In this document: piece after piece, positions 2,365 to 27,926 of the stretch
Position numbering within the stretch: position 1 is the first letter of the stretch
Layout: each line of letters starts with the position of its first letter
Assembly: GCA_018303825.1 (NCBI GenBank)
Contig: JAGVXK010000021.1
Coordinates: 7,752 to 71,751, forward strand
Direction: 5' to 3'
Length of the DNA stretch: 64,000 nucleotides
DNA from: Candidatus Pacearchaeota archaeon
Lineage (GTDB): Archaea; Nanobdellota; Nanobdellia; Pacearchaeales; GW2011-AR1
Translations under genes and position numbers: made by a program
The notes under the pieces: model-generated
What the model saw: the letters and a program-made list of their open reading frames with translations, nothing else
What the model was told of the DNA's origin: nothing
Databases searched by the model: none

Positions 2365-5300
2365 TGGAACAATTTTTCAGAAAACAAGTAAGCGCATTAA
2401 AGTTCAGTTTGCTCAGTCCTGAGAAAATAAAGAAAGTCAGCGCGGCAAAGATAGTAACTCCTGAACTATATGATATTGATGGGTTCCCTGTTGATGGGGG
2501 ATTAATGGATCTAAGATTAGGAGCAATAGACCCCGGAGTAAGGTGCAGGACTTGCGGAAAAAGAGTCAAGGAATGTCCCGGGCATCCAGGAAGCATAGAA
2601 CTTGCAAGGCCTGTTTTCCACATTAAGTATATTCCTCTGATAGAAGTTTGCTTGAGATCATTCTGTGCAAAGTGCGGGAAATTACTGCTTACTGAAGAAA
2701 AACAAAAAGAGTTAACTCCGGGGCAGAGGGCTAAAAAGGCGAGGGATATCAAGAAGTGTCCATATTGCTCTGAAATGCTCGAGAAAGTAAAGCTGGAAAA
2801 ACCGAGCACATTCATGGTTGGAAAGAAAAGATTGAATCCTATAGAAATTAAGGATAGATTGCTGAATATTAAGGATGAAGAATTGAAGAGAATAGGAGTT
2901 AATGCAAAGACTGCCAGGCCTGAGTGGGCAATTATTTCATTGCTTTTGGTTCCTTCTGTAACTGTCAGGCCGAGCATTACACTGGAGACAGGAGAAAGAA
3001 GCGAAGACGATTTGACTCATAAGTTAAGTGATATTATAAGAGCAAACCAAAGGTTATGGGAAAACTTGAATGCAGGGGCTCCCGAAGTTATTATTGAAGA
3101 TCTTTGGGATTTATTGCAGTATCATGTAACAACATTCTTTGACAATAATGTTTCGAGAATTCCACCAGCAAGGCATAGATCCGGACAGCCATTGAAGACA
3201 ATTACAGAAAGAATAAAAGGAAAAGAGGGAAGAATAAGACACAATCTTGCAGGAAAGAGAGTTAATTATTCTGCCAGAACAGTTGTATCACCAGACCCTT
3301 TCATAAAATTAAATGAGGTTGGAGTCCCGTATGAAGTTGCAAAAGTAATTACGGTTGCTGAAACTGTAACAACATTGAATATAGATGAAATGAAAGAATT
3401 AATCAAGAAAGGGGATAATTATCCTGGAGCAAGTTATGTTATAAGACCGGATGGAAGAAGAAAGAAAGTAACAGAAGAATTAAAGGAGGAGCTTGTTAAT
3501 GAAATTCAGCAAGGATATAAAATTGAAAGACATTTGAGAGATGGGGACGTTGTGCTTTTCAACAGGCACCCTACACTTCACAAGCAGGGATTGATGGCTC
3601 ACTATGTCAAAGTTCTTCCATATAGAACATTCAGACTTCATCCTGCGGCTGCATTCCCTTATAACGCAGATTTTGATGGGGATGAAATGAACATTCACAG
3701 CCCTCAAAATGAAGAAGCGCTGGCGGAAGCGAGAGTGCTTTTGAACATAAGCAATAATATAATTTCTTCAAAAAATAACACAAACTTATGCGGAACTATC
3801 GCAGATGCTATTACCGGGGCATATATATTAGGAAAAGATGAATTGAACAAGGCGGAAGCTGACCAATTATTATTTTCTGCCGGAATTATTAATAATTCGA
3901 AGAGCAAGAAGATAGATGGAAGAGCTGTTTTCGCGCAAATAATTCCTAAGGGGAGCAGCATAAAGATTCCGGAAGAAATAACTGGAAGCAACGCATTCGG
4001 CGCGGAAGAAGGAAAAATGGTCAAGATTATAGATGAAGAATTTGGAAGGGAGGTTGCTGTTGATACAATATCAAAGGCGTTCACGCTTGGAACAGTTCAC
4101 TTATCCAGAAGAGGATACACTATAGCATTGCAAGATATTAATGTCAGTGATAAAGTCAAGAAAATAACTCAAGAAATAGTTGCAGAAGCAGAAAAGAAGA
4201 CAACGGAAATTATAAAGAAGGAGCAAAATGGAGAACTTGAAATAATCCCTGGAAAGACATTGGAGGAAACAAGAGAAACAAGAATATTGCAGATACTTAA
4301 CGATGTCAGAACTGAAGTTGCTAAAGTTGTTTCTGATAACTTCCCGCATGATGCAAACTTGAATAAGATGATCGCATCAAAAGCTGGAGGAAGCATGACA
4401 AATGTTACACAGATAGGTTGTTGCGTAGGACAGCAGTCTCTATGGAGCAAAAGAATCAGCTTAGGATATAAAGATAGAACATTAAGTTTCTTCAAAAAGC
4501 ATGACCTTAACCCAGAAGCAAGGGGTTTCATAAAGAATTCATTCCTTTCCGGATTAAGCCCAACAGAGTTCTTTTTTGGGGCGATAACAGGAAGAGACGC
4601 GCTTATGGACTTGGCATTAAGAACACCTAAATCCGGATATCTCTATAGAAGATTAGTCTCTGCACTGCAGGACTTAAAGGTTGAATATGACGGAACAGTC
4701 AGGGATGCCTCTGAAAATATCGTGCAATTTGCATATGGTGATGACGGGAAAGATGTTGCAAGATTGCACTTAAAAGATGATAAAGTAAGCCCGGGGGAAG
4801 CTGTTGGAGTTATAACTGCTCAAAGCTTTGGAGAAGCTTCAACCCAGATGGTTTTGAACGTATTCCATGCTGCAGGAGTCGCCCAAATGCAGATTACAAT
4901 AGGATTGCCAAGACTTGTAGAAATTCTCGATGCCAGAAAGCAGCCTTCTACGCCATTGATGACATTATACTTAGAAAGAGATTATAATAATGAAAAGGAA
5001 GCAAAAGTTCTTGCTGAAAAAATAAAGGAAGTTAAATTAAAAGAAATTGTTTCTGAGATAAAAGTGGATTTTGCAAACAAAAAGATTGAAATTGAGCTTG
5101 ATGCAAAGGCTTTGAAGACAGTCCACTCCGGACCTCAAAAGATAATTGACAGATTGCATGAAAAAGGATTTTCAGTTAAAGGAAATGACTTGAGAATAAC
5201 CCTTACTTTGCAGGATAAAGACTTCAAGGAAATGTACAGGCTTAAAGAAAAATTAAAAGATACTATAATCTCGGGAGTTAAGGGAATCTCACAGGTTGTT

Positions 5301-17569: not shown

Positions 17570-17620
17570 AAAATAGTTGGCACGTTAAGAAAGCCCCTCG
17601 TGTCTTGAATATTTGTTCGT

Positions 17621-17694
17621 GAATCTCTCTTCGAGTGGAATTGACGGCTATTTTAAGTTTGGATTTATGATTTGCGGTGGTGGGAAGGTGCGCT
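17621..17694 (-). repeat. Island repeat, inverted partial copy (arm A)
   Basis: Perfect reverse complements of blocks in copy B: 17681-17694 vs 18145-18158 (14 bp), 17661-17675 vs 18218-18232 (15 bp), 17639-17647 vs 18244-18252 (9 bp). Confidence 0.75.
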
Positions 17695-17701
17695 TTGTGC
17701 A

Positions 17702-18091
17702 TCAAATAGCTACTAATATACTCTCTTTTGCTCTGCTAGTCTCATCTGCAAATGGAACACCTCTCTTGTCATTATACCATCCATATGTTTCTACTTTAGC
17801 TCTTTGTTCTGCAAGTTTCTTTGCAATATCATGTGTTCTTTGCTCCACATTTTCACATTCATCGACTATTCCAATAACGCCATGCACATGTTCAATTCTA
17901 ACTTGCGCTCTATTTTCAAGTAACAAAATAACATATTTGCCATCAATTGGTTTTTCTGGAGTAGCAACTACTATCGTATTCCATACGTCATCTCTTAAAG
18001 GGTTAAAAAATTTAAAAGCAGATATATATTTATAGCCATCATTCCGTTCTGGTTTCCTTTCCTGCAAAACAATCCTTGGTCCGCTACCCAT
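17702..18091 (-). CDS. Hypothetical protein (129 aa) bracketed by inverted repeat arms
   Basis: Balanced, charged composition. The overlapping + strand ORF 17613..18035 is Ser/Cys/Leu-rich and starts inside the repeat. Confidence 0.55.
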   Translation of the reverse strand: MGSGPRIVLQERKPERNDGYKYISAFKFFNPLRDDVWNTIVVATPEKPIDGKYVILLLENRAQVRIEHVHGVIGIVDECENVEQRTHDIAKKLAEQRAKVETYGWYNDKRGVPFADETSRAKESILVAI

Positions 18092-18144
18092 CTTTAAACA
18101 ATATTCATCGCCCTTTTAATTATTTCTATATTGTAAAATATGTT

Positions 18145-18423
18145 AGCGCACCTTCCCATTTCTTATTCATCAATTATTTCGCGAAGCGACTATTTAGGGG
18201 CGGGTGGTCGGGGGAATGCAAATCATAAATCCGTTTAATATTTCCGTCAATTACGTTTAAGCGAGATTAAACTGTCTGCTTTCTGATTTGGGAAAGGGCT
18301 TAAGCGTAACGAGAAGAGAGATTGAGAATTATTTTCATTCTGAAAATAACTTCCTATTTAATTTATAATATTAAGAAGCAAATTTCAAGTTCATTTAATC
18401 GTTCAGGCTAAAAGAACTTTCAA
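18145..18423 (+). repeat. Island repeat copy 1, 5' half (B); candidate structured RNA or MITE-like element
   Basis: Hairpin tcgc-gaa-gcga at 18179-18189. G-rich block at 18197-18214. Hairpin cgtttaagc/gcttaagcg at 18254-18262/18298-18306. 28-nt block at 18396-18423 identical to 22758-22785. Confidence 0.7.
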
Positions 18424-18485
18424 CCAAAAGAAGACAAATCCGAAAAATATATATACCATGATTTATCACTATATTCAATTAACTC

Positions 18486-18509
18486 CATGAGATCTGTAAG
18501 GATCTCATG
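18486..18509 (+). promoter_or_regulatory. Perfect 9-bp inverted repeat catgagatc-tgtaag-gatctcatg just upstream of the NYN gene start
   Basis: 18486-18494 pairs with 18501-18509. It ends 9 nt before the ATG at 18518. Confidence 0.35.
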
Positions 18510-18517
18510 TTTTTTAT

Positions 18518-19066
18518 ATGAATTCCAAAAAAGAGAAGGTTGCGATTTACATCGATGGTAGTAATTTATATTTCTCAATAAAAGATACATTCAATTGTAA
18601 AATTGACTTAGAAAAATTCTGTAAAAAATTAGTGAATGATGATGATTTAGCGAAGATTAATTATTATATTGCTCCTGTTGAGCAATTAGAAAATCCTAAA
18701 GCATACGCTCAACAGCAATCATTCTTTGAAAAATTAAGGAAAATTGATAAACTAAATCTAATTTTTGGCAGGCTAGAAAAGAGAAAGAAAGATGGAGAAA
18801 TATACCATGTAGAAAAAGCAACAGATGTAAATCTTGCCCTTGATTTGGCTTTAGATGCACAAAAAGGGGAATATGATAAGGCTCTTCTTATCTCAAATGA
18901 TGGTGACTTTTCTGGAGCGGTAACTGCCGCAGTCAGTTTCAAAAGAAAAGTCATTTATATTGCCATAGGCACCAACAAATCTATATCTTATCATTTGAAG
19001 AAAGTGGCATCTGCAACCTTTCGAATTAATAAGGAATTCATTGATGAATGTAAATTGGATGAGTAG
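18518..19066 (+). CDS. NYN-domain (LabA/DUF88-like) protein
   Basis: VAIYIDGSNLYFS.. at the N-terminus and ..ALLISNDGDFSGAV.. match the NYN/LabA-type nuclease fold pattern. Confidence 0.75.
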   Translation: MNSKKEKVAIYIDGSNLYFSIKDTFNCKIDLEKFCKKLVNDDDLAKINYYIAPVEQLENPKAYAQQQSFFEKLRKIDKLNLIFGRLEKRKKDGEIYHVEKATDVNLALDLALDAQKGEYDKALLISNDGDFSGAVTAAVSFKRKVIYIAIGTNKSISYHLKKVASATFRINKEFIDECKLDE

Positions 19067-19144
19067 AGTTTTCGGCTATTAGTATATGGTGAAAGTTGGG
19101 TTAAATCTCGTTTCGAACTAAGAGAACAATTATGGAATAATTGA

Positions 19145-19326
19145 GAGATTTACCTTTTAGCAGAGATTAGGCGAGTCTGAAAGACCTCGAGCTACGAACT
19201 AAGAGTCTCGAGTTAGCTAAACCTCACAAGAATGGGCTCTTTGCGTAATTGCTGAGAATCTTATGTTCTTAGGGCATTTCATTTGTATCTGTCGGGGGCG
19301 CGTTTTTGCTTCTCGCAGAAAATCTC
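19145..19326 (+). repeat. Island repeat copy 1, 3' half (C)
   Basis: gagattaggcgag at 19163-19175 (identical to 22884-22896). ctcgag/ctcgag stem at 19186-19191/19207-19212. cgtaattg at 19244-19251. G-rich arm gtcgggggc.. at 19291-19326. Confidence 0.7.
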
Positions 19327-19409
19327 TGATTTTCTGAGCCATCAAGAACTTTGTTCTTGAGGTTTTCTGAAAAAGAAGATTTTTTATATGTTGTTTATTA
19401 TTAATATCT

Positions 19410-19727
19410 ATGACTTATGCAGTTTATACAACTGAGAGTTTTGATAAAGAGGTTGAGAAATTGTCTGGAGGAGACCGAGAGATAATTCAGAAAATGTTTT
19501 TTAAGATTAAAGACAATCCTTACGCCAGTAACCAATTAAGATACAAGAATCTTAGAGAGAAGCGAATTAGAGAAAAAAGAGTTTATTTTCTAGTTTATGA
19601 TGATTTGCGAGCAGTTCTTATTGTTGCTATAAGCGGTAAGAAAGACCAACAAGCAACAATCAATCATATAATCAATTACTTTGATGATTATAAAGAATAC
19701 TTGGAAAAATTGCTAGGAAAAGATTAA
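19410..19727 (+). CDS. relE: RelE/ParE-family toxin
   Basis: 105 aa. The pattern ..EKRIREKRVYFLVYDDLRAVLIVAISGKKDQ.. is typical of RelE/ParE mRNA-interferase toxins. Confidence 0.7.
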   Translation: MTYAVYTTESFDKEVEKLSGGDREIIQKMFFKIKDNPYASNQLRYKNLREKRIREKRVYFLVYDDLRAVLIVAISGKKDQQATINHIINYFDDYKEYLEKLLGKD

Positions 19728-19879
19728 GCAACCTGTCTTACTCTGCCAGCTTTAACATCTTCTAAACTTGCCTTGAACTGCCTTAATAAATCAAAGTCTA
19801 TCTTTTCTAGCTCTCTGAGCATAGCTACTTGAGCCTTCATCTTCTCGTATTCATCTTTTGGTACCTTTACCATTTCCAT
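19724..19879 (-). CDS. Small antitoxin-like protein (51 aa), convergent with and overlapping relE by 4 nt
   Basis: MEMVKVPKDEYEKMKAQVAMLRELEKIDFDLLRQFKASLEDVKAGRV resembles the C-terminal ..DIKAGRV helices of Phd/YefM-type antitoxins. Below the ORF-track cutoff. Confidence 0.4.
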   Translation of the reverse strand: MEMVKVPKDEYEKMKAQVAMLRELEKIDFDLLRQFKASLEDVKAGRVRQVA

Positions 19880-19936
19880 AAATATTTCTAAGAATCAAAG
19901 TTTTTAAGCTTTCTGGAAGTCACTTTTGCCCCCTTG

Positions 19937-20074
19937 TTATTGGTTAATTATCTCTATTTTGAGCTCTACTATCGTTCCCGGTTTTAGTCTCTCCTCTAAC
20001 AATTTAGGCATGATTATTATAGCTTGTTTGCCGTGCTTGGCGATTTTCTTGATTATTGTGAATTGAGTTGTCAT
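19937..20074 (-). CDS. AbrB/SpoVT-like small DNA-binding protein (45 aa)
   Basis: MTTQFTIIKKIAKHGKQAIIIMPKLLEERLKPGTIVELKIEIINQ follows the AbrB/MazE-type swapped-hairpin pattern (..G.s..v.iPk.l.e.l.l..G..v.i.i). Confidence 0.45.
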   Translation of the reverse strand: MTTQFTIIKKIAKHGKQAIIIMPKLLEERLKPGTIVELKIEIINQ

Positions 20075-20258
20075 CTTACTAATTTATAGATCTCATAAAT
20101 AGATACTCCTAAAATTGCATATCTTATTGCAATATTCTTTGCAAAATCCCAGAAAGGATTACCTAAGGGCGAGCCTAAAAATAAAGTATTAAACTTTATT
20201 CCAATAATCTATATTTTCCCACGAGATATCGTAGACAATTGTTTAAAAATTTACTAAC

Positions 20259-20429
20259 TTATTCTGCGGTGAGCCCTAAACTATCTTGATCTGGCAATGC
20301 ATCAGCATAGCAGTCATCTAACAATCTTTCATCAATTCTCTTCAAAGCCCTTCTTTCTCCAATAATTGGAATTGAATCTTTAACAAGTTCGACTAACGAA
20401 ATCTTTTTGTTATTTGCCTTCTCTTTCAT
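20259..20429 (-). CDS. Small hypothetical protein (56 aa), third gene of a minus-strand operon
   Basis: The ATG at 20429 lies 5 nt after the stop of 20435..21145. Translation: MKEKANNKKISLVELVKDSIPIIGERRALKRIDERLLDDCYADALPDQDSLGLTAE. Confidence 0.35.
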   Translation of the reverse strand: MKEKANNKKISLVELVKDSIPIIGERRALKRIDERLLDDCYADALPDQDSLGLTAE

Positions 20430-20434
20430 TTTTT

Positions 20435-21145
20435 CTAACCTCGTATTGAATCTTCTACAATTCTATTCACTTCTGAAAGTATGCGTTCCCTCGTTCTCTG
20501 ACCAAAAATCCTATGGATTAATGAACTATCGTCATAACTTTGTAAAACAAACTCAACATTTGGAGGAGATGTAAATTTCTTAAATCTTCTAAGGGGATAA
20601 ATAGTAGTAACTTTAACCACACAACCATTTTGTTCTCCACCATTTCTTCTTTCAAACAAATCTGTTTCTGCATTCTTTCCATATTCGTCTACTACTCGAT
20701 GGTCGTCTAATACTTGGAGGTATTGTAAATATGGAATTTGACCTTTAGGACAAACGTTTTTTGGTCTAAAACTAAAAGGTTCTTTGTTAATTTTATCTGC
20801 TACAAAGGTCAAGATGTCTTCGGGTGCCTTGAATAAATGTCTACCAAAATCCCTAAAATCTTGCCCTAAAATACCTATTTGAACGCCTTCCCTAGCAGAA
20901 AAACTATAATCTTTCTTTGTATCAAATTCTGTCCAAATATGCCCGCCTAGACTCTCTAAGTGCCCAGTACCATCCAGATGGTTTACAAGAAAAGCGGGCC
21001 AAGTTCCCTTATTGTAATATCCTACCTGACATCCTGTAATTCTTACATTGCCCATTCCATGCAAAAGGTACATTAAATGCTCTGGGCTAATACTATCAAA
21101 TATGGCACTGTTTTGTACTCTCTTATCATACTTTTGTTCAATCAT
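20435..21145 (-). CDS. Hypothetical protein (236 aa)
   Basis: Long ORF with normal composition. Its start overlaps the stop of the upstream gene (ATGA). His/Gly-rich segment HLDGTGHLESLGGHIW. No family recognised. Confidence 0.6.
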   Translation of the reverse strand: MIEQKYDKRVQNSAIFDSISPEHLMYLLHGMGNVRITGCQVGYYNKGTWPAFLVNHLDGTGHLESLGGHIWTEFDTKKDYSFSAREGVQIGILGQDFRDFGRHLFKAPEDILTFVADKINKEPFSFRPKNVCPKGQIPYLQYLQVLDDHRVVDEYGKNAETDLFERRNGGEQNGCVVKVTTIYPLRRFKKFTSPPNVEFVLQSYDDSSLIHRIFGQRTRERILSEVNRIVEDSIRG

Positions 21146-21723
21146 TTTCTTTCACCTCCGAATTTTTTCTGAAGAAAATCCAATGCTAGTTGCCTTTCTC
21201 TTTCTGATTCAAAAATAACAAGGGGCCTTGGCCAAGGTTTGTTACATTTTTTAATAAAAAATTCAAGCAGGGATTGATGAGAAGAAGCTAATAGATGATC
21301 AAACCCGCTAGGGGTTAAATCTGAGTAACCTGGTGTCATCGGGCGACCTATTTTGTCTGCGATAGAATTAACCTCATAGGGTCTTGGTGTGAATGATAAC
21401 GCATAAACCCTCAAACTATCTCCAAACCTACCTGTATTGACGTGCTGAATTAGGCATAATTGATCTCCCAAATAAAGATGCATTTGCATATCCATTTTAT
21501 CTCTTTCATCCGCATTACAATAAATACGCCCGCCAGGAACAACGGGTGATGCTCCGCATAGAGTTATTTCGCCAAACTGAGCAACCCTCTCTAAGTAAAT
21601 TGGACCCCCATCATTAAATCTCGGTGCACATAATGATAAGTTAACACTTCTCTCTCTACAAAAAATTGCGTTTGCCATTTCTTGATGGGCGTCTTTTCTT
21701 TCTATGTTTAATCTTATTCTCAT
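21142..21723 (-). CDS. Hypothetical protein (193 aa)
   Basis: First gene of the operon divergent from the TrmB-like gene at 21852. No family recognised. Confidence 0.6.
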   Translation of the reverse strand: MRIRLNIERKDAHQEMANAIFCRERSVNLSLCAPRFNDGGPIYLERVAQFGEITLCGASPVVPGGRIYCNADERDKMDMQMHLYLGDQLCLIQHVNTGRFGDSLRVYALSFTPRPYEVNSIADKIGRPMTPGYSDLTPSGFDHLLASSHQSLLEFFIKKCNKPWPRPLVIFESERERQLALDFLQKKFGGERK

Positions 21724-21851
21724 TTTCTATTTCTCCCAAGTTTATTTACTATCATAAGATAATGGCATAATAAAGTGTATTTAAATTATTGTTGTAAGGA
21801 AGCTATTAACAATTTAGAAAGAATTAAATATAACAATTCACTTGATTTTAT

Positions 21852-22565
21852 ATGGAAATAACTACACTCGAGAGTCTTGGAATGAACAAAACAGAGGCCA
21901 AAGTATATCTGGCTTTACTTGAATTGGGAGAAGTACAAGCAGGACAGATAAGTAAAAAATCAGGAGTTAATAGAACAAGCACGTATGATTCATTAGAAAG
22001 ACTAATATCGAAGGGTCTCGTTAAATATGTTATTCAATCAAATAAAAAGGTATTCGGGGCAGATAAACCCAATAAAATAGTTGAGCAATTAAAAGAACAG
22101 GAGAGAATAGCTAAGCAAATACTGCCAGAACTTAATAATTTGTTTAAAGAATCAAAAAAAGATGAGGAATCTGAGATCTATAAAGGCAGAAAAGGGATAA
22201 GGTCTATCTTGTTTGAAATAGTAAAATATAAAGAATATATTGCTTTTGGCTCAAAAGGCAAGTTTTTAGAGATAATGAAGCACGATTTTGAGATTTTTCA
22301 AAAAAGGAAGAAAAAATTAAAGATAAAAGCCAGAGTAATATTAAGAGAATCTGATAGGACTTCTGAATCTGTTAAGGTTGCTTATAGTGATTTTAAATTT
22401 GTTCCTGATGAATATGGATCTCCGACTACTACATTTGTTTATGGAAATAATATTGCCATAATTGTCTGGCTGTCTGAGCCAATCGCTACAGTAATAAAGA
22501 GTAAAGAGGTCGCTGAAAGCTATTCGCATTATTTTGAACTACTTTGGAAACTCGCAAAGCCCTAG
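21852..22565 (+). CDS. TrmB-family transcriptional regulator (paralog 1)
   Basis: The N-terminal winged helix LESLGMNKTEAKVYLALLELGEVQAGQISKKSGVNRTSTYDSLERLISKGLV is a typical TrmB HTH. Confidence 0.8.
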   Translation: MEITTLESLGMNKTEAKVYLALLELGEVQAGQISKKSGVNRTSTYDSLERLISKGLVKYVIQSNKKVFGADKPNKIVEQLKEQERIAKQILPELNNLFKESKKDEESEIYKGRKGIRSILFEIVKYKEYIAFGSKGKFLEIMKHDFEIFQKRKKKLKIKARVILRESDRTSESVKVAYSDFKFVPDEYGSPTTTFVYGNNIAIIVWLSEPIATVIKSKEVAESYSHYFELLWKLAKP

Positions 22566-23037
22566 ATGATACCTTCTTCGGCGTGAGCCGAAGCTCTCTG
22601 TGCGAAGCACCCAAGCCCCCGACCAATTTCTGTTTGACTGAAATGCCTACAATCAGCAATTTCGTTTAAGCTTGATTAAACCTTTGGATTTTTTGTTAGT
22701 GGCTTAAGCGGAGCAAAGAGCCAATTACTATTTTAAAGTTGAGGTTTACTTTTCGTCTAATCGTTCAGGCTAAAAGAACTTTCAAGGCAATTGTTAAAAG
22801 TCAAAATAATTGAAAGTTACAGAAAATTATGGTTTCCATAAAGGAAATACTTTAGGATAAAGTAAATAATTTTTCTTTTAGTGGAGATTAGGCGAGTCCA
22901 AAGGACCTCTTGGTGCGAATTAAGAGCCAAGAGTTAGTAAACCACAACGAAATATTTGCGAATAAGTGTAATTGCTGGCTATTTTGGTTTTGGGGCTGGC
23001 GAGGCGTTTTTCTAAGGGGCACTTTTTCCTAGTCTAA
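22566..23037 (+). repeat. Island repeat copy 2 (D), full length; candidate structured RNA or MITE-like element
   Basis: GNRA hairpin cttcggc-gtga-gccgaag at 22576-22593. gtgc-gaa-gcac at 22600-22610. C-rich block at 22611-22623. Hairpin at 22663-22671/22702-22710. 28-nt block at 22758-22785. gagattaggcgag at 22884-22896. Stem at 22907-22913/22927-22933. aattgctg at 22970-22977. G-rich arm at 22992-23027. Confidence 0.75.
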
Positions 23038-23544
23038 CTAGTTAATTAAAAACCTATAATAAGATGTAAGAAAATCCAAATTATCTTTAGGATTTATATT
23101 CATATTTCCCTCTCCTGTAAAAATAACCTTGTCCCTGAGAGGATATAATGGTGACGACCTAAACTCTACATATCCAACTCCCGCCACCCTAAACCATGGC
23201 TCAAAGTCATCATGACCACCCGTGGGCAAAATTATCCCATTTCTAATCTCACTCAAAATATGTACAATTTCTGATCTATCCCTCATTCTTGTCAATTTAG
23301 CAAAATTGAATTTTGTTATTGCATGTGCAACAAGCTTCCTATAAAACTCTGTGCCATACTCGTGATCTGAATTTGAATCGAAGTTCCTTCGACAAAAATG
23401 AAATTCCAGAGGATTTCCTTCAAAATTGGATGACTTAATCAAATTAAGACTATCTTCCAAAAACACGTCTAACGCATTCCGAATACACAACGGGTACTTA
23501 CCAACCCTTCTGAATATAAACGCGTCATCATATAACTTCTCCAT
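23038..23544 (-). CDS. Hypothetical protein (168 aa)
   Basis: Divergent from the TrmB-like gene at 23630. No family recognised. Confidence 0.6.
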   Translation of the reverse strand: MEKLYDDAFIFRRVGKYPLCIRNALDVFLEDSLNLIKSSNFEGNPLEFHFCRRNFDSNSDHEYGTEFYRKLVAHAITKFNFAKLTRMRDRSEIVHILSEIRNGIILPTGGHDDFEPWFRVAGVGYVEFRSSPLYPLRDKVIFTGEGNMNINPKDNLDFLTSYYRFLIN

Positions 23545-23629
23545 GAACTCTCTGTCTTGCCTAGTCTTTTAAATCTTAGTTGTTATTATTAATAACAACA
23601 TTTAAATAATCACTACAATAAAACTAATA

Positions 23630-24337
23630 ATGGAAGAACTCATAGAAAATTTAAAAATGGCCGGTCTAACTGGAAATGAATCAAAAGTTTACGTAGGTCT
23701 AATTAAGATTGGAGAAACTTCAGCCAACGAATTAGCAAAAAATCTGAGTTTAGACAGAACATTAACATATACTATTCTAAACCATTTAATAGAAAAGGGA
23801 ATGGTTGGCTATGTTATCAAAGCAAATAAAAAGTTCTTCTCGGCATCTGAACCACAAAACCTATTAAATAAAATAAAAAAAGATGAAACAGCGATAAAAA
23901 GAGTGATAGAAACTTTAAAAACAATGAAAACAACAAACGAGCCCTCCCCGAAAGTGAATGTTTATGATGGGAAAGAGGGACTCAGAACATTCTTAAGGCT
24001 TCTGACAAAAGATAAGAAGATTTCTGCATTTGGAGCGACAGGCAGATTATATGACTCTCTCTTCGAAACAGAAGCCATCGCAAAAGAATTAAAAAAAACA
24101 TTATCTGCTAGAATTATTGCTAGTAATAAATATCGCACCCATCCAATTAGGAAAATAAAGAGAATTGAAGTAAGATATTTAGATGTGGACAACGAGGCAA
24201 CAACAACCATTTTCGGAGATTATATTGCCCTACATCTTTTAACAGATAAACCATTCATAATAACAATCAAGAACAAAGAAATTGCGCATGGTTATCTAAA
24301 CTATTTCAATCTTCTCTGGAAAATCGCCAAGAAATAA
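23630..24337 (+). CDS. TrmB-family transcriptional regulator (paralog 2)
   Basis: LKMAGLTGNESKVYVGLIKIGETSANELAKNLSLDRTLTYTILNHLIEKGMV. Its C-terminus ..YLNYFNLLWKIAKK parallels ..YSHYFELLWKLAKP of paralog 1. Confidence 0.8.
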   Translation: MEELIENLKMAGLTGNESKVYVGLIKIGETSANELAKNLSLDRTLTYTILNHLIEKGMVGYVIKANKKFFSASEPQNLLNKIKKDETAIKRVIETLKTMKTTNEPSPKVNVYDGKEGLRTFLRLLTKDKKISAFGATGRLYDSLFETEAIAKELKKTLSARIIASNKYRTHPIRKIKRIEVRYLDVDNEATTTIFGDYIALHLLTDKPFIITIKNKEIAHGYLNYFNLLWKIAKK

Positions 24338-24797
24338 TCTGAAAAAGTGCCCCGTTCTGCTGTTTGATAATTATTGTTCGTATTTTCGCCAACAGGCGAC
24401 TATCTGTGCGTAGCACCACCGAGCCAGCCCCTATCGAACTTCCAGCAATTTTGTTTAAACTAGATTAAACGCTCTGCGTCTGATTTCTGAAAATGGTTTA
24501 AACGAAACGAATGAGCAAATCCCTAAAGAGGTTTACTTATCGTTTAATCGTTCGTAATAAGAGTGGTTTTAGCCATTAATACTTAAATCGTATGAGCTAA
24601 AACTAAGACTAAATTCCGTCTTTCTACTAAAGAAAGTATTTCAGGATGAAATAAGGAATTTATCTCTTATGTGAGATTAGCCGACCACTTTAGTAGCGCG
24701 AGCTGATTACGAAAATCCTCGCGACTTTTGCTTTGTTCTCAGCCGATTTCGAAGCGTAATTGCCAAGATTTATAAAGTAGTAGATTTTATTTAGATT
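24338..24797 (+). repeat. Island repeat copy 3 (E), near full length
   Basis: aaaaagtgcccc at 24342-24353. Hairpin tcgcc-aaca-ggcga at 24386-24399. gtgc-gta-gcac at 24406-24416. gccagcccc at 24423-24431. Hairpin gtttaaac/gtttaaac at 24453-24460/24496-24503. gagattagccgac at 24673-24685. Stem cgcgag/ctcgcg at 24697-24702/24718-24723. aattgc at 24758-24763. Confidence 0.75.
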
Positions 24798-25085
24798 ATG
24801 GGTTGGAAAAACTGGAGTTATTGGTTGAGAGGAGGTTTTTTGCTAGCAACGATTTACTTTATTTATACTTTACTTATAAATCAATTATATGGGACAGTTA
24901 TAAAAGCAGGATTATATCGCATATTATATGAGGTCGGATATCCCTTCAATTTTGTACGGTTTTTGGTTATGGGCTTTAATGAATCATTCATAGCCATAAT
25001 TTTCAGTTGGATAATTGCATATATTGTCTTTTTCCTTCTTGGAGCAATAATTGGTTGGATCGTTGGTAAAATAAAATCTAAGTAA
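24798..25085 (+). CDS. Small membrane protein (95 aa)
   Basis: Three hydrophobic segments. Flanked on both sides by island repeat copies. Confidence 0.55.
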   Translation: MGWKNWSYWLRGGFLLATIYFIYTLLINQLYGTVIKAGLYRILYEVGYPFNFVRFLVMGFNESFIAIIFSWIIAYIVFFLLGAIIGWIVGKIKSK

Positions 25086-25100
25086 TTCTTTTTTGAATAA

Positions 25101-25367
25101 TTGGCAATTTCGTTTAAGCAAGCTATTGTGCGACATCTCTGATTCGCACCCAGCGGTTAAGCGGAGCGAGAAATTAACGGGCTGAGAATTGCAAGCCGAA
25201 AGGGGCAAGAGTTTACAGGCAATATTCTATTTGTTACTATGGAAACTCTGAAGGGGAAGGGGCTTTCTTTTTCTTGAGGGGATTTGCAACCCGAGCGATA
25301 GCGAAGGGCAAAGCAAAAGTTTGGTTAATCATACTTAAACGAACATTAAGAATGAAAAAGAAAGGAT
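25101..25367 (+). repeat. Island repeat copy 4 (F), partial and rearranged
   Basis: ggcaatttcgtttaagc at 25103-25119, with the 3' arm ggttaagcggagcgag at 25155-25170. The inner stem gtgcga../..tcgcac replaces the usual loop. Further fragments are gagtttac and cttaaacgaac. Confidence 0.55.
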
Positions 25368-27926
25368 TTAACCTAATATGCTCAAATTCACTTGGACTTC
25401 TGGTTCTTTTGGAACTTTAACAATATCCGCCACTTTGTCTCCTTCTTTCAACTTAACCACATGGACTCCCTGCGTGGCTCTTCCCATGACTCTCAAGTCC
25501 CTCATGCTCGTTCTAAGGACCATCCCTTTTGTTGTCGTTATTATCACAGAATCACGGTCGTTGACACACAAAGAAGAGATGACATTTCCTGTTCTTTCAG
25601 AAACATCAAGACTAATTACTCCTTTTGCGCCCCTCGATGTCTTCCTATATTCTTCTAAATCTGATCTCTTCCCGAATCCTTTTTCTGCTACGGTAAGTAT
25701 TGTTGTTTTCCCATTCATCGGAAGACTTTCAAGAGCGACAACTTCATCTGTCTTTCCTAATTCTGCGCCTTTTACCCCATAAGATACCCTTCCCATAGGC
25801 CTTACCTCGTCGCTGTTGAATCTAACCGCCTGCCCTTTCTTTGTGACAAGCATTACTTCCTGCTTATCTATGACATGACTTACATTGATTAAAATATCAG
25901 AATTATCTGCCGGGAGATTTATTACCCTAACGCCCGTATTTCTTGGTTTGCTCAAATCTTTCAGTGGAAGCTTCTTTACCATTCCAAGTTTCGTGGCAAA
26001 CATCAAATATCCCACATCGAAATTCTTTACAGCTTTTACATTTGCTATGGCTTCATCTCTTAAACTTAAAAGATTGACAATTGCTTTCCCCTTTCCTTGT
26101 CTTTCTGCTGATGGAATATCATTTGCTTTCAGCCAATAAACCCTCCCCCTTGTTGTGAAGAACAATAAGAAATCATGTGTTGAGCAGGTAAGCATCTTGT
26201 TTACAAAATCTTCCTCTTTAAGTTCTGCCCCGCTTGTTCCAGCTCCGCCCCTCTTCTGCTCTTTATATGCCTTAACATCAACTCTCTTCACATATCCTGA
26301 GTTTGTAATCATAATGACAACATCTTTCTTCTCAATAAGGTCTTTTTCTGTTATTTCCTCAACCCTTCTTAATATTCTTGTTCTTCTCTCATCACCATAT
26401 TTTGTCTTAAATTCCTGAACCTCTCTCTTTATAACCTTTAGAATTTCTTTTTCGTCTCCAAGAATTTTCTTCAAGTCAGAAATTCCCTCTTTAAGCTTCT
26501 TTTCCTCATCCCTGAGCTTTCCTTCTTCTAATCTTGTCAATTGCTGCAATCTTATCTCCAAAACTGCCCTTGCCTGCTTATCAGTCAAAGAGAATTTCTT
26601 CATTAAGCCATCGTGTGCATCTGTCGCATTAGCTGATTTTTTGATAAATTCAACAACTTTATCAATATTCTTCTGCGCAATTAAAAGACCTAAGACAATT
26701 TCAAGCCTTTCTTCAGCTTTCTTCAATTCAAACTTGCTTCTATTCCTGACTATTAATCTTCTGTATTTGATATATTCTTCAATTATCTGCTTCAAATTAA
26801 GAACAACCGGCTTATTTCCAACAAGAGCAAGAAGATTTGCATCAAAACTCGTTTCCAGGTTAGTTGAAGTGTAAAGCTTGTTCAATGTAAATTTAGAATC
26901 AACTTCTTTTTTCAATTCAACAACAATTCTTACCTTTCCTTTGGAAGATTCGTCTCTTAAGTCATAAACATCTGGGAGCTTTTTCTCAGTTGCAAGCCTT
27001 GCAATCGATGTAACAAGATCAGACTTGTTAACCATGTAAGGTATTTCATTAATGATTATGATTGGCCTCCCTTTGCGCTCTTCAACTGTTGTTTTTCCTC
27101 TTATTACAATTTTTCCCTTTCCAGACTTATACATATCTTTTATTCCGTCTCCAAATATCTGTCCCCCTGTTGGAAAATCAGGGCCCTTTACTACTTCAGC
27201 AAGTTCATCTATAGTTATTTCCGGCTTGTTTATGCATTCAATTATTGCATCGCATACTTCTGTTAGATTATGGGGGGGAATATTTGTGGCCATTCCTACA
27301 GCTATTCCCGTAGCCCCATTAATTAGTAAATTTGGCAATTTCGCAGGAAGTGTTTCCGGCTCTTTTGTTGAATTATCGAAGTTAGGCCTCATCTTCACAG
27401 TTTCTTTATCAATGTCTTCAATTAATTCCTGTGAAATCTTTGAAAGTTTTACTTCTGTGTATCTTTGTGCTGCCGGACTATCTCCATCGAGTGAACCAAA
27501 ATTTCCTTGCCCGTGCACAAGTGGGTATCTTAAAGAAAAATCCTGTGCCATTCTCACGAGAGAATCATATACTGCAATATCACCATGTGGATGATACTTT
27601 CCTAAAACTTCTCCTACTACTGCCGCTGATTTTCTTGTTGGCTTGCTCGCATCAAGCCCAATAGAATGCATCGCATATAAAATTCTTCTGTGCACAGGTT
27701 TTAACCCATCCTCAACACTTGGAAGTGCTCTCTGAACAATAACGGACATTGCATAATCTATATATGCCTGCTCCATTTCCTCGACTATTTCCACGTTTGC
27801 TACGCCCTTCTCAACTTCTCCCTTTGCTCTTCTTTCCTGCTCTTTCTTTTCTGCTTCTATATCTATCTTTTTCTCTGTTTCATTCCCATTGCAATTTCCA
27901 TTTTTGTTTTCTTGCTTCTCCGCCAT
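25368..27926 (-). CDS. gyrA: DNA gyrase subunit A
   Basis: [29 protein letters not shown], with the active-site Tyr region ..[10 protein letters not shown].. and C-terminal beta-pinwheel repeats. 852 aa. Confidence 0.95.

Follow-up and report, generated by a model that had tools for sequence, protein, structure and literature searches.

The DNA analysed in this study (hereafter the window) is a stretch of 64,000 nucleotides (nt) from a Candidatus Pacearchaeota archaeon (assembly GCA_018303825.1, contig JAGVXK010000021.1, positions 7,752-71,751). The segment belongs to the core chromosome of an AT-rich DPANN archaeon and carries the genes for RNA polymerase subunits, S12, S7, EF-2, aIF2-gamma, S6e, L7Ae, gyrA and gyrB. 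Between the aIF2-gamma/S6e genes and gyrA/gyrB lies an array of large structured repeats alternating with other genes. One of these repeats, at 22566-23037, had been read in a preliminary description as a single, self-closed structured RNA of the + strand. The present analysis indicates instead that this interval is the right end of one gene cassette (leader and foot domain) abutting the left end of the next (from the TAATC box to the tail), and that the helix thought to close it encloses a gene-bearing spacer. The region was found again in Rifle aquifer assemblies; no strain-level cassette polymorphism was detected at the window's own locus, where the cassette order was identical in three assemblies.

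The copies in the window were located by nhmmer and blastn as a fragment (A), a pair split by a gene for an NYN-domain protein (B and C) and copies D, E and F. A copy is made up of a leader, a 5' domain (Y), a 3' domain (X) and a tail; tail strands are called H0, H1 and H2, and the leader strands that pair with them H0', H1' and H2'. The foot motif AATTNNGTTTAARCNNGATTAAAC occurs three times in the window against 0.05 expected. The features are as follows, with lengths in amino acids (aa) and base pairs (bp) and with open reading frames given as ORFs.

17575-17700, + strand: copy A, a truncated 3' domain (remnant of the 3' hairpin) with its tail, at the start of the array; nhmmer 3'-module match at 17585-17646.
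17639-17647 (H0), 17661-17675 (H1) and 17682-17693 (H2), + strand: tail strands of copy A, complementary to the leader of copy B (exact strings located, cofold).
17702-18091, - strand: spacer gene between A and B, 129 aa, without family match, in the loop of the A-tail:B-leader stem, between complementary strands of 9, 15 and 12 bp.
18146-18395, + strand: leader and 5' domain (Y) of copy B, with H2' (18146-18157), H1' (18218-18232), H0' (18244-18252) and a G-rich motif.
18179-18189 and 18254-18306, + strand: 5' hairpin and foot hairpin of copy B, the latter with a GATTA loop at 18265-18269; a variable hairpin is also present.
18160-18425 and 19082-19306, + strand: extents of copies B and C in the profile and blastn searches.
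18396-19310, + strand: 3' domain (X) of copy B/C, with TAATC (18396-18400), GATTA (19165-19169) and the 3' hairpin (19186-19212).
18415-18423 and 19089-19097, + strand: the two strands of helix 4 in B/C, parted by the cargo gene.
18518-19066, + strand: cargo ORF for an NYN-domain nuclease in the apical loop of helix 4 (Pfam NYN, 7.9e-19).
19247-19255 (H0), 19273-19281 (H1) and 19291-19299 (H2), + strand: tail strands of copy C, complementary to the leader of copy D.
19410-22565, both strands: spacer between C and D with six ORFs, comprising a ParE-like toxin homologue, small ORFs, two unknowns and a TrmB-family regulator (21852-22565).
22566-22757, + strand: leader and 5' domain of copy D, the right end of the upstream cassette, with the 5' hairpin (22576-22593), the foot (22663-22710) and its GATTA loop (22674-22678).
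22615-22623 (H2'), 22639-22647 (H1') and 22653-22661 (H0'), + strand: leader strands of copy D.
22758-23030, + strand: 3' domain and tail of copy D, the left end of the downstream cassette, with TAATC (22758-22762) and helix 4 (22777-22785/22810-22818).
22886-22890 and 22907-22933, + strand: GATTA and 3' hairpin of copy D.
22970-22978 (H0), 22992-23000 and 23016-23028, + strand: tail strands of copy D, complementary to the leader of copy E.
23038-24337: spacer between D and E, a divergent pair of a 168-aa gene without known family (- strand) and a TrmB-family gene (+ strand).
24338-24797, + strand: copy E, with leader strands at 24341-24353, 24423-24431 and 24442-24450 (H0') and the 5' hairpin at 24386-24399.
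24452-24504, 24545-24549, 24675-24679 and 24697-24723, + strand: foot, TAATC, GATTA and 3' hairpin of copy E.
24758-24766, + strand: H0 in the tail of copy E, complementary to copy F.
24798-25085, + strand: spacer gene between E and F, 95 aa, membrane-like.
25099-25350, + strand: copy F, a long 5'-domain variant, with H0' (25101-25109), the foot (from 25111) and TAATC (25326-25330).

Copy F (nhmmer match 25099-25349) is the last array module in the window and abuts the 3' end of gyrA; long variants homologous to it are carried by two related loci (L001 and L006). The NYN cargo protein matches a candidate defence family (PADLOC HEC-09, 2.3e-26).

Retrieval with the foot motif yielded 8 loci in species-representative genomes and 87 metagenome stretches, cited here by their L numbers. 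The genome loci belong to metagenome-assembled genomes of Nanoarchaeota, Woesearchaeota or Pacearchaeota, save one contig labelled Deltaproteobacteria. This contig (L004, MGPL01000001.1, deposited as 'Deltaproteobacteria bacterium GWA2_55_10') bears the archaeal element together with a TrmB-type gene and is probably mis-binned. Within the sampling, the structured-repeat family is confined to Woesearchaeota, Pacearchaeota and Nanoarchaeota (DPANN). With separate iterated nhmmer profiles, 140 matches were obtained for the 5' module and 101 for the 3' module, and in every locus the modules alternated 5', 3', 5', 3' on a single strand. Between a 5' module and its 3' module lay 56-64 nt in contiguous copies and 530-850 nt in copies with inserted ORFs; the following 5' module came 253-3395 nt after the 3' module, with one to six genes in between. 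The core measures about 340-490 nt (337-489 nt as measured), and about 600 nt with leader and tail.

No described counterpart was found. Rfam 15 at gathering score gave only tRNAs over the whole window, and a search of 18000-25500 at E up to 10 returned no relevant match, group I/II introns, RNase P, SRP, GOLLD, ROOL, OLE and HEARO included. Blastn against phage and plasmid collections gave no match; a foot-pattern scan of IMG/VR returned one stretch (L096), which holds neither the 5' nor the 3' module, and an X-pattern scan of IMG/VR returned none. Full-text literature searches found no description of this repeat family. One of the window's tRNA genes (57592-57719, - strand, 57.3 bits with Rfam, missed by ARAGORN) has an intron of about 55 nt, which is consistent with an archaeal origin. 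GC skew was set aside as an indicator of the replication strand, since it follows gene orientation only.

The preliminary description had quoted its strings at the correct positions, including those of a long-range helix proposed to close each copy. This helix was tested by anchoring on the AATT of both strands and comparing the lengths of contiguous runs (Mann-Whitney test). The 3' strand of one copy paired with the 5' strand of the next copy over a mean run of 8.55, with at least 9 bp in 71% of 56 junctions, whereas the two strands within a copy gave a mean run of 5.0 against 5.2 for random (p = 0.82). The preference for the neighbour over the own copy was strong (p = 4.5e-12), and a helix closing inside one copy is rejected statistically, given the random level of the own-copy run. 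The closing sequences are present as described, but the partner had been wrongly assigned. The H0 helices of the window are as follows.

Copy A to copy B: AATTGACGG/CCGTCAATT
Copy C to copy D: AATTGCTGA/TCAGCAATT
Copy D to copy E: AATTGCTGG/CCAGCAATT
Copy E to copy F: AATTGCCAA/TTGGCAATT

When the tail and the next leader, 120 nt of each, were cofolded, the median free-energy difference (ddG) was -20.7 kcal/mol, compared with -8.3 for the own leader and -9.2 for leaders of other loci (p = 2.7e-18). Within the window the stems amount to 9+15+12 bp between A and B, 9+9+9 bp between C and D, where the stem spans 3.4 kb and six genes, and 9+9+13 bp between D and E. Their sequences vary from junction to junction, and their wobble pairs are unevenly distributed: 276 G·U on the + strand versus 126 on the - strand over the junction stems, and 36 G·U versus 14 A·C cells in H0. 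The tail and leader of one cassette form a long interrupted stem (H0, H1, H2/H3) with the genes in its loop. Often both strands of a junction stem contain a G-rich motif (GGGTGGG, for instance), or else a G-rich tail faces a C-rich leader. For example, the motifs GGTGGTGGG and GGGGCGGGTGGTCGGGGG stand on both strands of one junction stem (window 17676-17688 and 18191-18215); such motifs might be G-quadruplexes or protein sites. The leaders also hold mini-hairpins of the GCGAAGC type.

The core fold was examined by an RNAalifold consensus on 27 distinct contiguous cores, with 500 column shuffles and with partners slid by 1-3 columns as controls. The consensus has 66 pairs in nine helices, 41 of them with compensatory double changes. 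Of all cells, 96.3% were paired, against 78.5% in shuffles and at most 51% after sliding; the covariation score was 0.51, against 0.17 and at most 0.10, respectively, and none of the 500 shuffles reached either value. Although the 27 copies are divergent (mean identity about 70%), 92-99% of pairs are kept in each helix. The alignment and folding check proposed in the preliminary description thus gave strong covariation, and the conserved multi-helix fold that it had described is well founded.

The helices are the foot, helix 2, helix 3, the helix 4 hairpin, a three-way unit (5-7), helix 8 and helix 9 (the 3' hairpin). Helix 2 pairs UAAUC with GAUUA and is invariant save for one covarying flanking pair; altogether, three invariant pentamers (TAATC, GATTA and GATTA) are present in 27/27 copies. 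The three hairpins singled out earlier (5', foot and 3') covary over about 90 related loci. The foot has 12 pairs, 96.9% paired, four with double changes and many of them U·G, and the 3' hairpin has eight pairs, 94.9% paired, six with double changes. The 5' hairpin is real and covarying, and some 19 different leaders have it immediately before CU(A/C)UCUGU, but it is a feature of only a subset of copies; its stems include UCGCC/GGCGA, CUUCGGC/GCCGAAG, UCUGC/GCAGA and CUUUGC/GCAAAG, with loops that are often GNRA or GNNA. In copies split by cargo, the helix 4 strands remain complementary around the ORF in 14/14 cases checked. Some copies are without the foot and variable hairpins (L077 at about 2740-2810, L095 at about 4790-4850, the array end of L046, and L015 compared with L035, …CAATTTCGTYTAATC…), and the 5' strand of the foot, AATTTCGTTTAAGC, is similar to the box TTTCGTYTAATC.

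The wobble pairs that had been taken to mark the + strand bear this out, since the core helices have 58 G·U versus 14 A·C cells (26 versus 13 with the foot excluded), and this excess indicates that the + strand is the one that folds, as a single strand. Single copies had minimum-free-energy z-scores that were alike on the two strands (-3.3 versus -3.2 for D). The folded + strand could be RNA or single-stranded DNA alike, because folded single-stranded DNA, as in integron attC sites and IS200/IS605 ends, would give the same signatures; the fold itself does not imply RNA.

What is inherited together was read from matches of more than 93% identity between contigs, which begin or end at the invariant TAATC box in at least six independent contig pairs. 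Examples are L009/L010, L011/L094, L036/L056 and copy B of the window, whose leader and Y domain are 93% identical to those of L041 and L009 only as far as the box. L035/L071 share a block of 1998 nt bounded by TAATC at both ends, and L077/L092 share the same Y, followed by a normal X in one contig and by a terminal variant, X2, in the other. Because identity breaks at TAATC, the co-inherited unit consists of TAATC, X, tail, genes, leader and Y, and all strongly covarying helices, the tail:leader stem included, fall inside it. Each copy is a junction, with Y inherited with the upstream genes and X with the downstream genes. No target-site duplications were seen at the boundaries.

The arrays also have a polarity. 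X2, a short variant (TAATCAYYNTTAACCG...GCGTTCGGCGCTTCGCGCCTCAC...GGCTATTTT) that comes after a Y, was the last module in 16/16 unique cases and lay upstream of the same RsmB/F-type methyltransferase gene in six loci, while several arrays open directly with the box and X. The site beside X2 may be the primary landing site for cassettes. X2 has hairpins of its own (TTAACCGC...GCGGTTAA and GGCGCTTCGCGCC; e.g., L005, L002, L006 at 5088, L007 at 2337 and L039 at 5148). Viral copies sought with a pattern from the X2 GC hairpin were rejected, as the matches were unrelated sequences.

The genes in the arrays are diverse: among 143 array proteins, 85 were singletons. The recurrent Pfam families, among the best 25 listed, were TrmB (8), DUF2283 (6), PBECR2 toxin (5) and Lrp/AsnC (4), followed by PIN, NYN, ParE and MarR (2 each), a cytosine methylase with an NgoPII restriction enzyme, one DDE_3 transposase and assorted enzymes. 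The PBECR2 toxin and its DUF2283 partner are presumed to be a toxin-antitoxin pair. TrmB-family regulators ending in ...LWK(I/L/V)AK are the commonest cassette gene; they stand immediately upstream of a leader, usually divergent from a - strand gene without known family (window 21852-22565 and 23630-24337; L001 4581-5333; L004; L010; L046). Another protein, about 300 aa long, bears a membrane anchor at its C terminus, has no Pfam match and recurs in 12 loci (e.g., L006 3975-4880 on the - strand, L095 and L029), always on the - strand and directly after a tail. The tail carries a conserved CTATT box.

Based on these data, we tentatively favour, at a little short of an even chance, structure-guided, strand-specific recombination of DNA cassettes by a trans-encoded candidate enzyme. 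In such a process, the + strand of a cassette would fold as single-stranded DNA, the tail:leader stem would join up its two ends, and TAATC would be shown to the enzyme through pairing with either invariant GATTA, in helix 2 of X or in the foot loop of Y. The enzyme, which might be HUH/Y1-like as in IS200/IS605 or a tyrosine recombinase as on attC, would cut and rejoin at TAATC. Cassettes would then leave as circles with one reconstituted Y-X junction and insert at another TAATC, the box beside X2 possibly serving as the primary landing site. This model would account for where the boundary lies (the base of helix 2), for the polarity and co-orientation, for the pairing of a cassette's two ends and for the three invariant pentamers. 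The ends of IS608 recognise their cleavage sites through internal guide sequences, and the arrangement of the pentamers, a single TAATC with a GATTA to its side in each end of the cassette, parallels this recognition.

Several observations weigh against cassette recombination. No integrase or recombinase was found among the best 25 families listed for 137 cassette proteins and 47 other window proteins, or in 10 further window ORFs. Y1_Tnp genes were found only in L012 (802-1236, - strand) and L075 (1383-1802, + strand; Pfam 1.7e-32 and 1.6e-27), and neither of these IS200 TnpA copies is a likely mobiliser of the arrays, both being assigned to an unrelated insertion sequence with its own ends; that of L012 is a small element with hairpins GCAGCAAGCTGCGGGGTAT and GTAGCAAGCTACGGGGTAT, inside a PBECR2 toxin gene that is itself cargo of a helix 4 loop. 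A pseudoknot between the foot loop (GATTARRCG) and CGYY+TAATC gave no covariation (0.758 versus 0.753), in a test that says nothing on the invariant 5-nt core either way. For some breakpoints, a microhomology deletion or an assembly join at the conserved box could be the cause. One clear loss of a 5' domain by microhomology, a 117-nt deletion between near-identical contigs, did not occur at the box, and L077/L092 share the box alone on one side, which counts against an assembly join as the origin of that breakpoint. In addition, a fold of at least 12 helices with conserved loops is much more intricate than the known single-stranded DNA recombination sites and looks more like functional RNA, and for stems that close loops as long as 3.4 kb the better precedents come from RNA, as in rRNA processing stems. 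The cargo ORFs of helix 4 lean to the + strand (23 versus 9), and T5-6 runs follow GC-rich segments in 72% of tails (1.32 T-runs versus 0.44 A-runs per tail), resembling archaeal terminators of + strand transcripts.

The last four of these points lead to the strongest rival, which is possible though less probable: a functional + strand RNA, made from each junction or as the 3' untranslated region of the upstream cassette gene and ending at the T-runs of the tail. It could act as a ribonucleoprotein scaffold, as a processing or insulating element, or as a stabiliser of cassette transcripts. The tail:leader pairing would link neighbours in cis, on read-through, or in trans, and shuffling would be secondary, through recombination at the most conserved sequence. 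Besides the multi-helix architecture, the long-range stems that resemble those of rRNA operons, the T-runs and the strand bias of the cargo, this explanation draws on the invariant loops, the GNRA/GNNA tetraloops of the leaders, the conserved G·U positions, the tolerance of ORFs in apical loops only, and the retention of pairs in all 27 divergent copies. On the other hand, roughly one spacer gene in two runs antisense to the element (- strand 59, + strand 46), and no Rfam family matches. It also leaves unexplained the X-genes-Y unit with breaks exactly at TAATC, the polarity with a terminal X2 and the two extra invariant GATTA motifs.

An improbable extension is that the chained units represent a new class of large catalytic or self-assembling RNA, in which the tail:leader stem would unite X and Y into an active RNA able to cut and join at UAAUC. 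Whole cassettes might then be released or circularised, or a host enzyme guided on DNA, as an RNA-based cassette system in DPANN archaea. Still less likely, and more speculative, is a permuted ribozyme-like unit, in which X as the 3' half and Y as the 5' half, joined by the tail:leader stem, would cleave and ligate at UAAUC, giving circular cassette RNAs or joined neighbouring units. The order of X, gene-bearing stem and Y is that of a permuted intron-exon layout, the boundaries of the units coincide with a single invariant pentamer, which stands at the helix 2 base, and natural permuted group II introns do make RNA circles, although the known ones are only 15-86 nt (PMC8637638). Against it, searches up to E = 10 showed no similarity to group I/II models, many of the genes in the loops run antisense, and the DNA breakpoints would need reverse transcription, while no reverse transcriptase is among the array families listed.

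The preliminary description had also allowed that its hairpins might be the terminal repeats of a DNA transposon with target-site duplications; taken literally this does not hold, since the flanks covary and no duplications were seen, although DNA-level cassette exchange at a fixed box was indeed observed. A conventional inverted-repeat transposon is essentially excluded, and a non-autonomous DNA transposon of the miniature inverted-repeat type, with the complementary strands as terminal repeats recognised in double-stranded DNA, is very unlikely: genes flanked by inverted repeats about 100 nt long, many copies per genome and one DDE_3 transposase among the cassette genes would suit it, but the repeats are cassette-specific and covarying, whereas transposase-binding ends are conserved, G·U pairs are in excess on one strand, target-site duplications were not seen, the conserved part is found where neighbouring units meet, between their repeats, and not at the tips, and all copies of a locus have a single orientation.

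The gain and shuffling of accessory genes in DPANN archaea, with their tiny, host-dependent genomes, are poorly understood, and the present arrays, inside the core chromosome, carry toxin-antitoxin, restriction-modification, candidate defence and regulator genes. Should the arrays serve as a platform for cassette capture, the integron idea would have been invented independently, with a different and much larger folded site and a candidate enzyme in place of IntI; a new strand-specific insertion tool could even be conceived. With either nucleic acid, the element ranks with the most elaborate of the conserved nucleic-acid structures that have no Rfam family, and its chained topology, with every unit paired to the adjacent one across the genes between them, is unprecedented.

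Concerning known systems, the element has one trait expected of a structured non-coding RNA, a conserved one-strand structure with covariation; the T-runs of the tails and the + strand bias of the cargo ORFs are indirect hints of transcription. It resembles GOLLD, ROOL, OLE and raiA in its length of several hundred nt, its many covarying helices, its lack of a known function at discovery and its origin in metagenomes. Those RNAs are single genes of bacterial or phage origin and not archaeal, whereas the present element, without Rfam match, occurs in chained arrays, and its two halves are passed on together with different neighbouring genes. Processing stems of archaeal rRNA operons likewise arise from sequences flanking a kilobase-scale segment, but the segments enclosed here are protein genes on either strand. 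The bulge-helix-bulge geometry (two 3-nt bulges on opposite strands, 4 bp apart) was not seen in 16 predicted junction stems, as judged by inspection of minimum-free-energy structures only. Permuted intron-exon arrangements, including circularly permuted group II introns, share the two structured halves around an internal segment, joined by pairing; they differ from the element in that it has no group I/II similarity and that catalysis is here only a proposal.

IS200/IS605 elements ('peel-and-paste' single-strand transposons) and their passenger-only derivatives are strand-specific; their ends have subterminal structure but neither classical inverted repeats nor target duplications. They are cleaved and inserted beside a fixed sequence of 4-5 nt that is base-paired with internal guides, form a circular junction and can be mobilised in trans. 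The G·U excess on the + strand, the boundary at the fixed TAATC and the absence of visible duplications agree with such elements. In contrast, the ends described here are several times larger, at least 200 nt long and multi-helix, and the same pentamer would serve both ends, which would give head-to-tail arrays. The Y1 genes seen are those of L012 and L075, the former with unrelated ends, and an enzyme encoded elsewhere in the genome is possible.

The element behaves most like integron cassette arrays, yet without their defining attC-type hairpin and intI. Integron arrays without a nearby integrase exist. The likeness lies in co-oriented arrays of accessory genes rich in toxin-antitoxin pairs, in separating repeats conserved in structure rather than sequence, in the folding of one strand, in exchange at a short invariant core and in cassettes without their own recombinase. 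Of these, crossover at the conserved core (TAATC, at least six contig pairs) and the co-orientation of the sites were both found when tested. In the archaeal integrons reported to date, the attC sites are canonical (PMC9668308). An attC site, including the VCR of Vibrio, consists of a single imperfect hairpin, about 55-140 nt long, that bears R and L boxes (RYYYAAC...GTTRRRY), whereas the present element has 340-490 nt, at least nine core helices and a TAATC core instead of GTTRRRY. Further, no IntI is among the families listed, and, unlike in an integron, the genes lie on either strand and the two ends of each cassette pair with each other around them.

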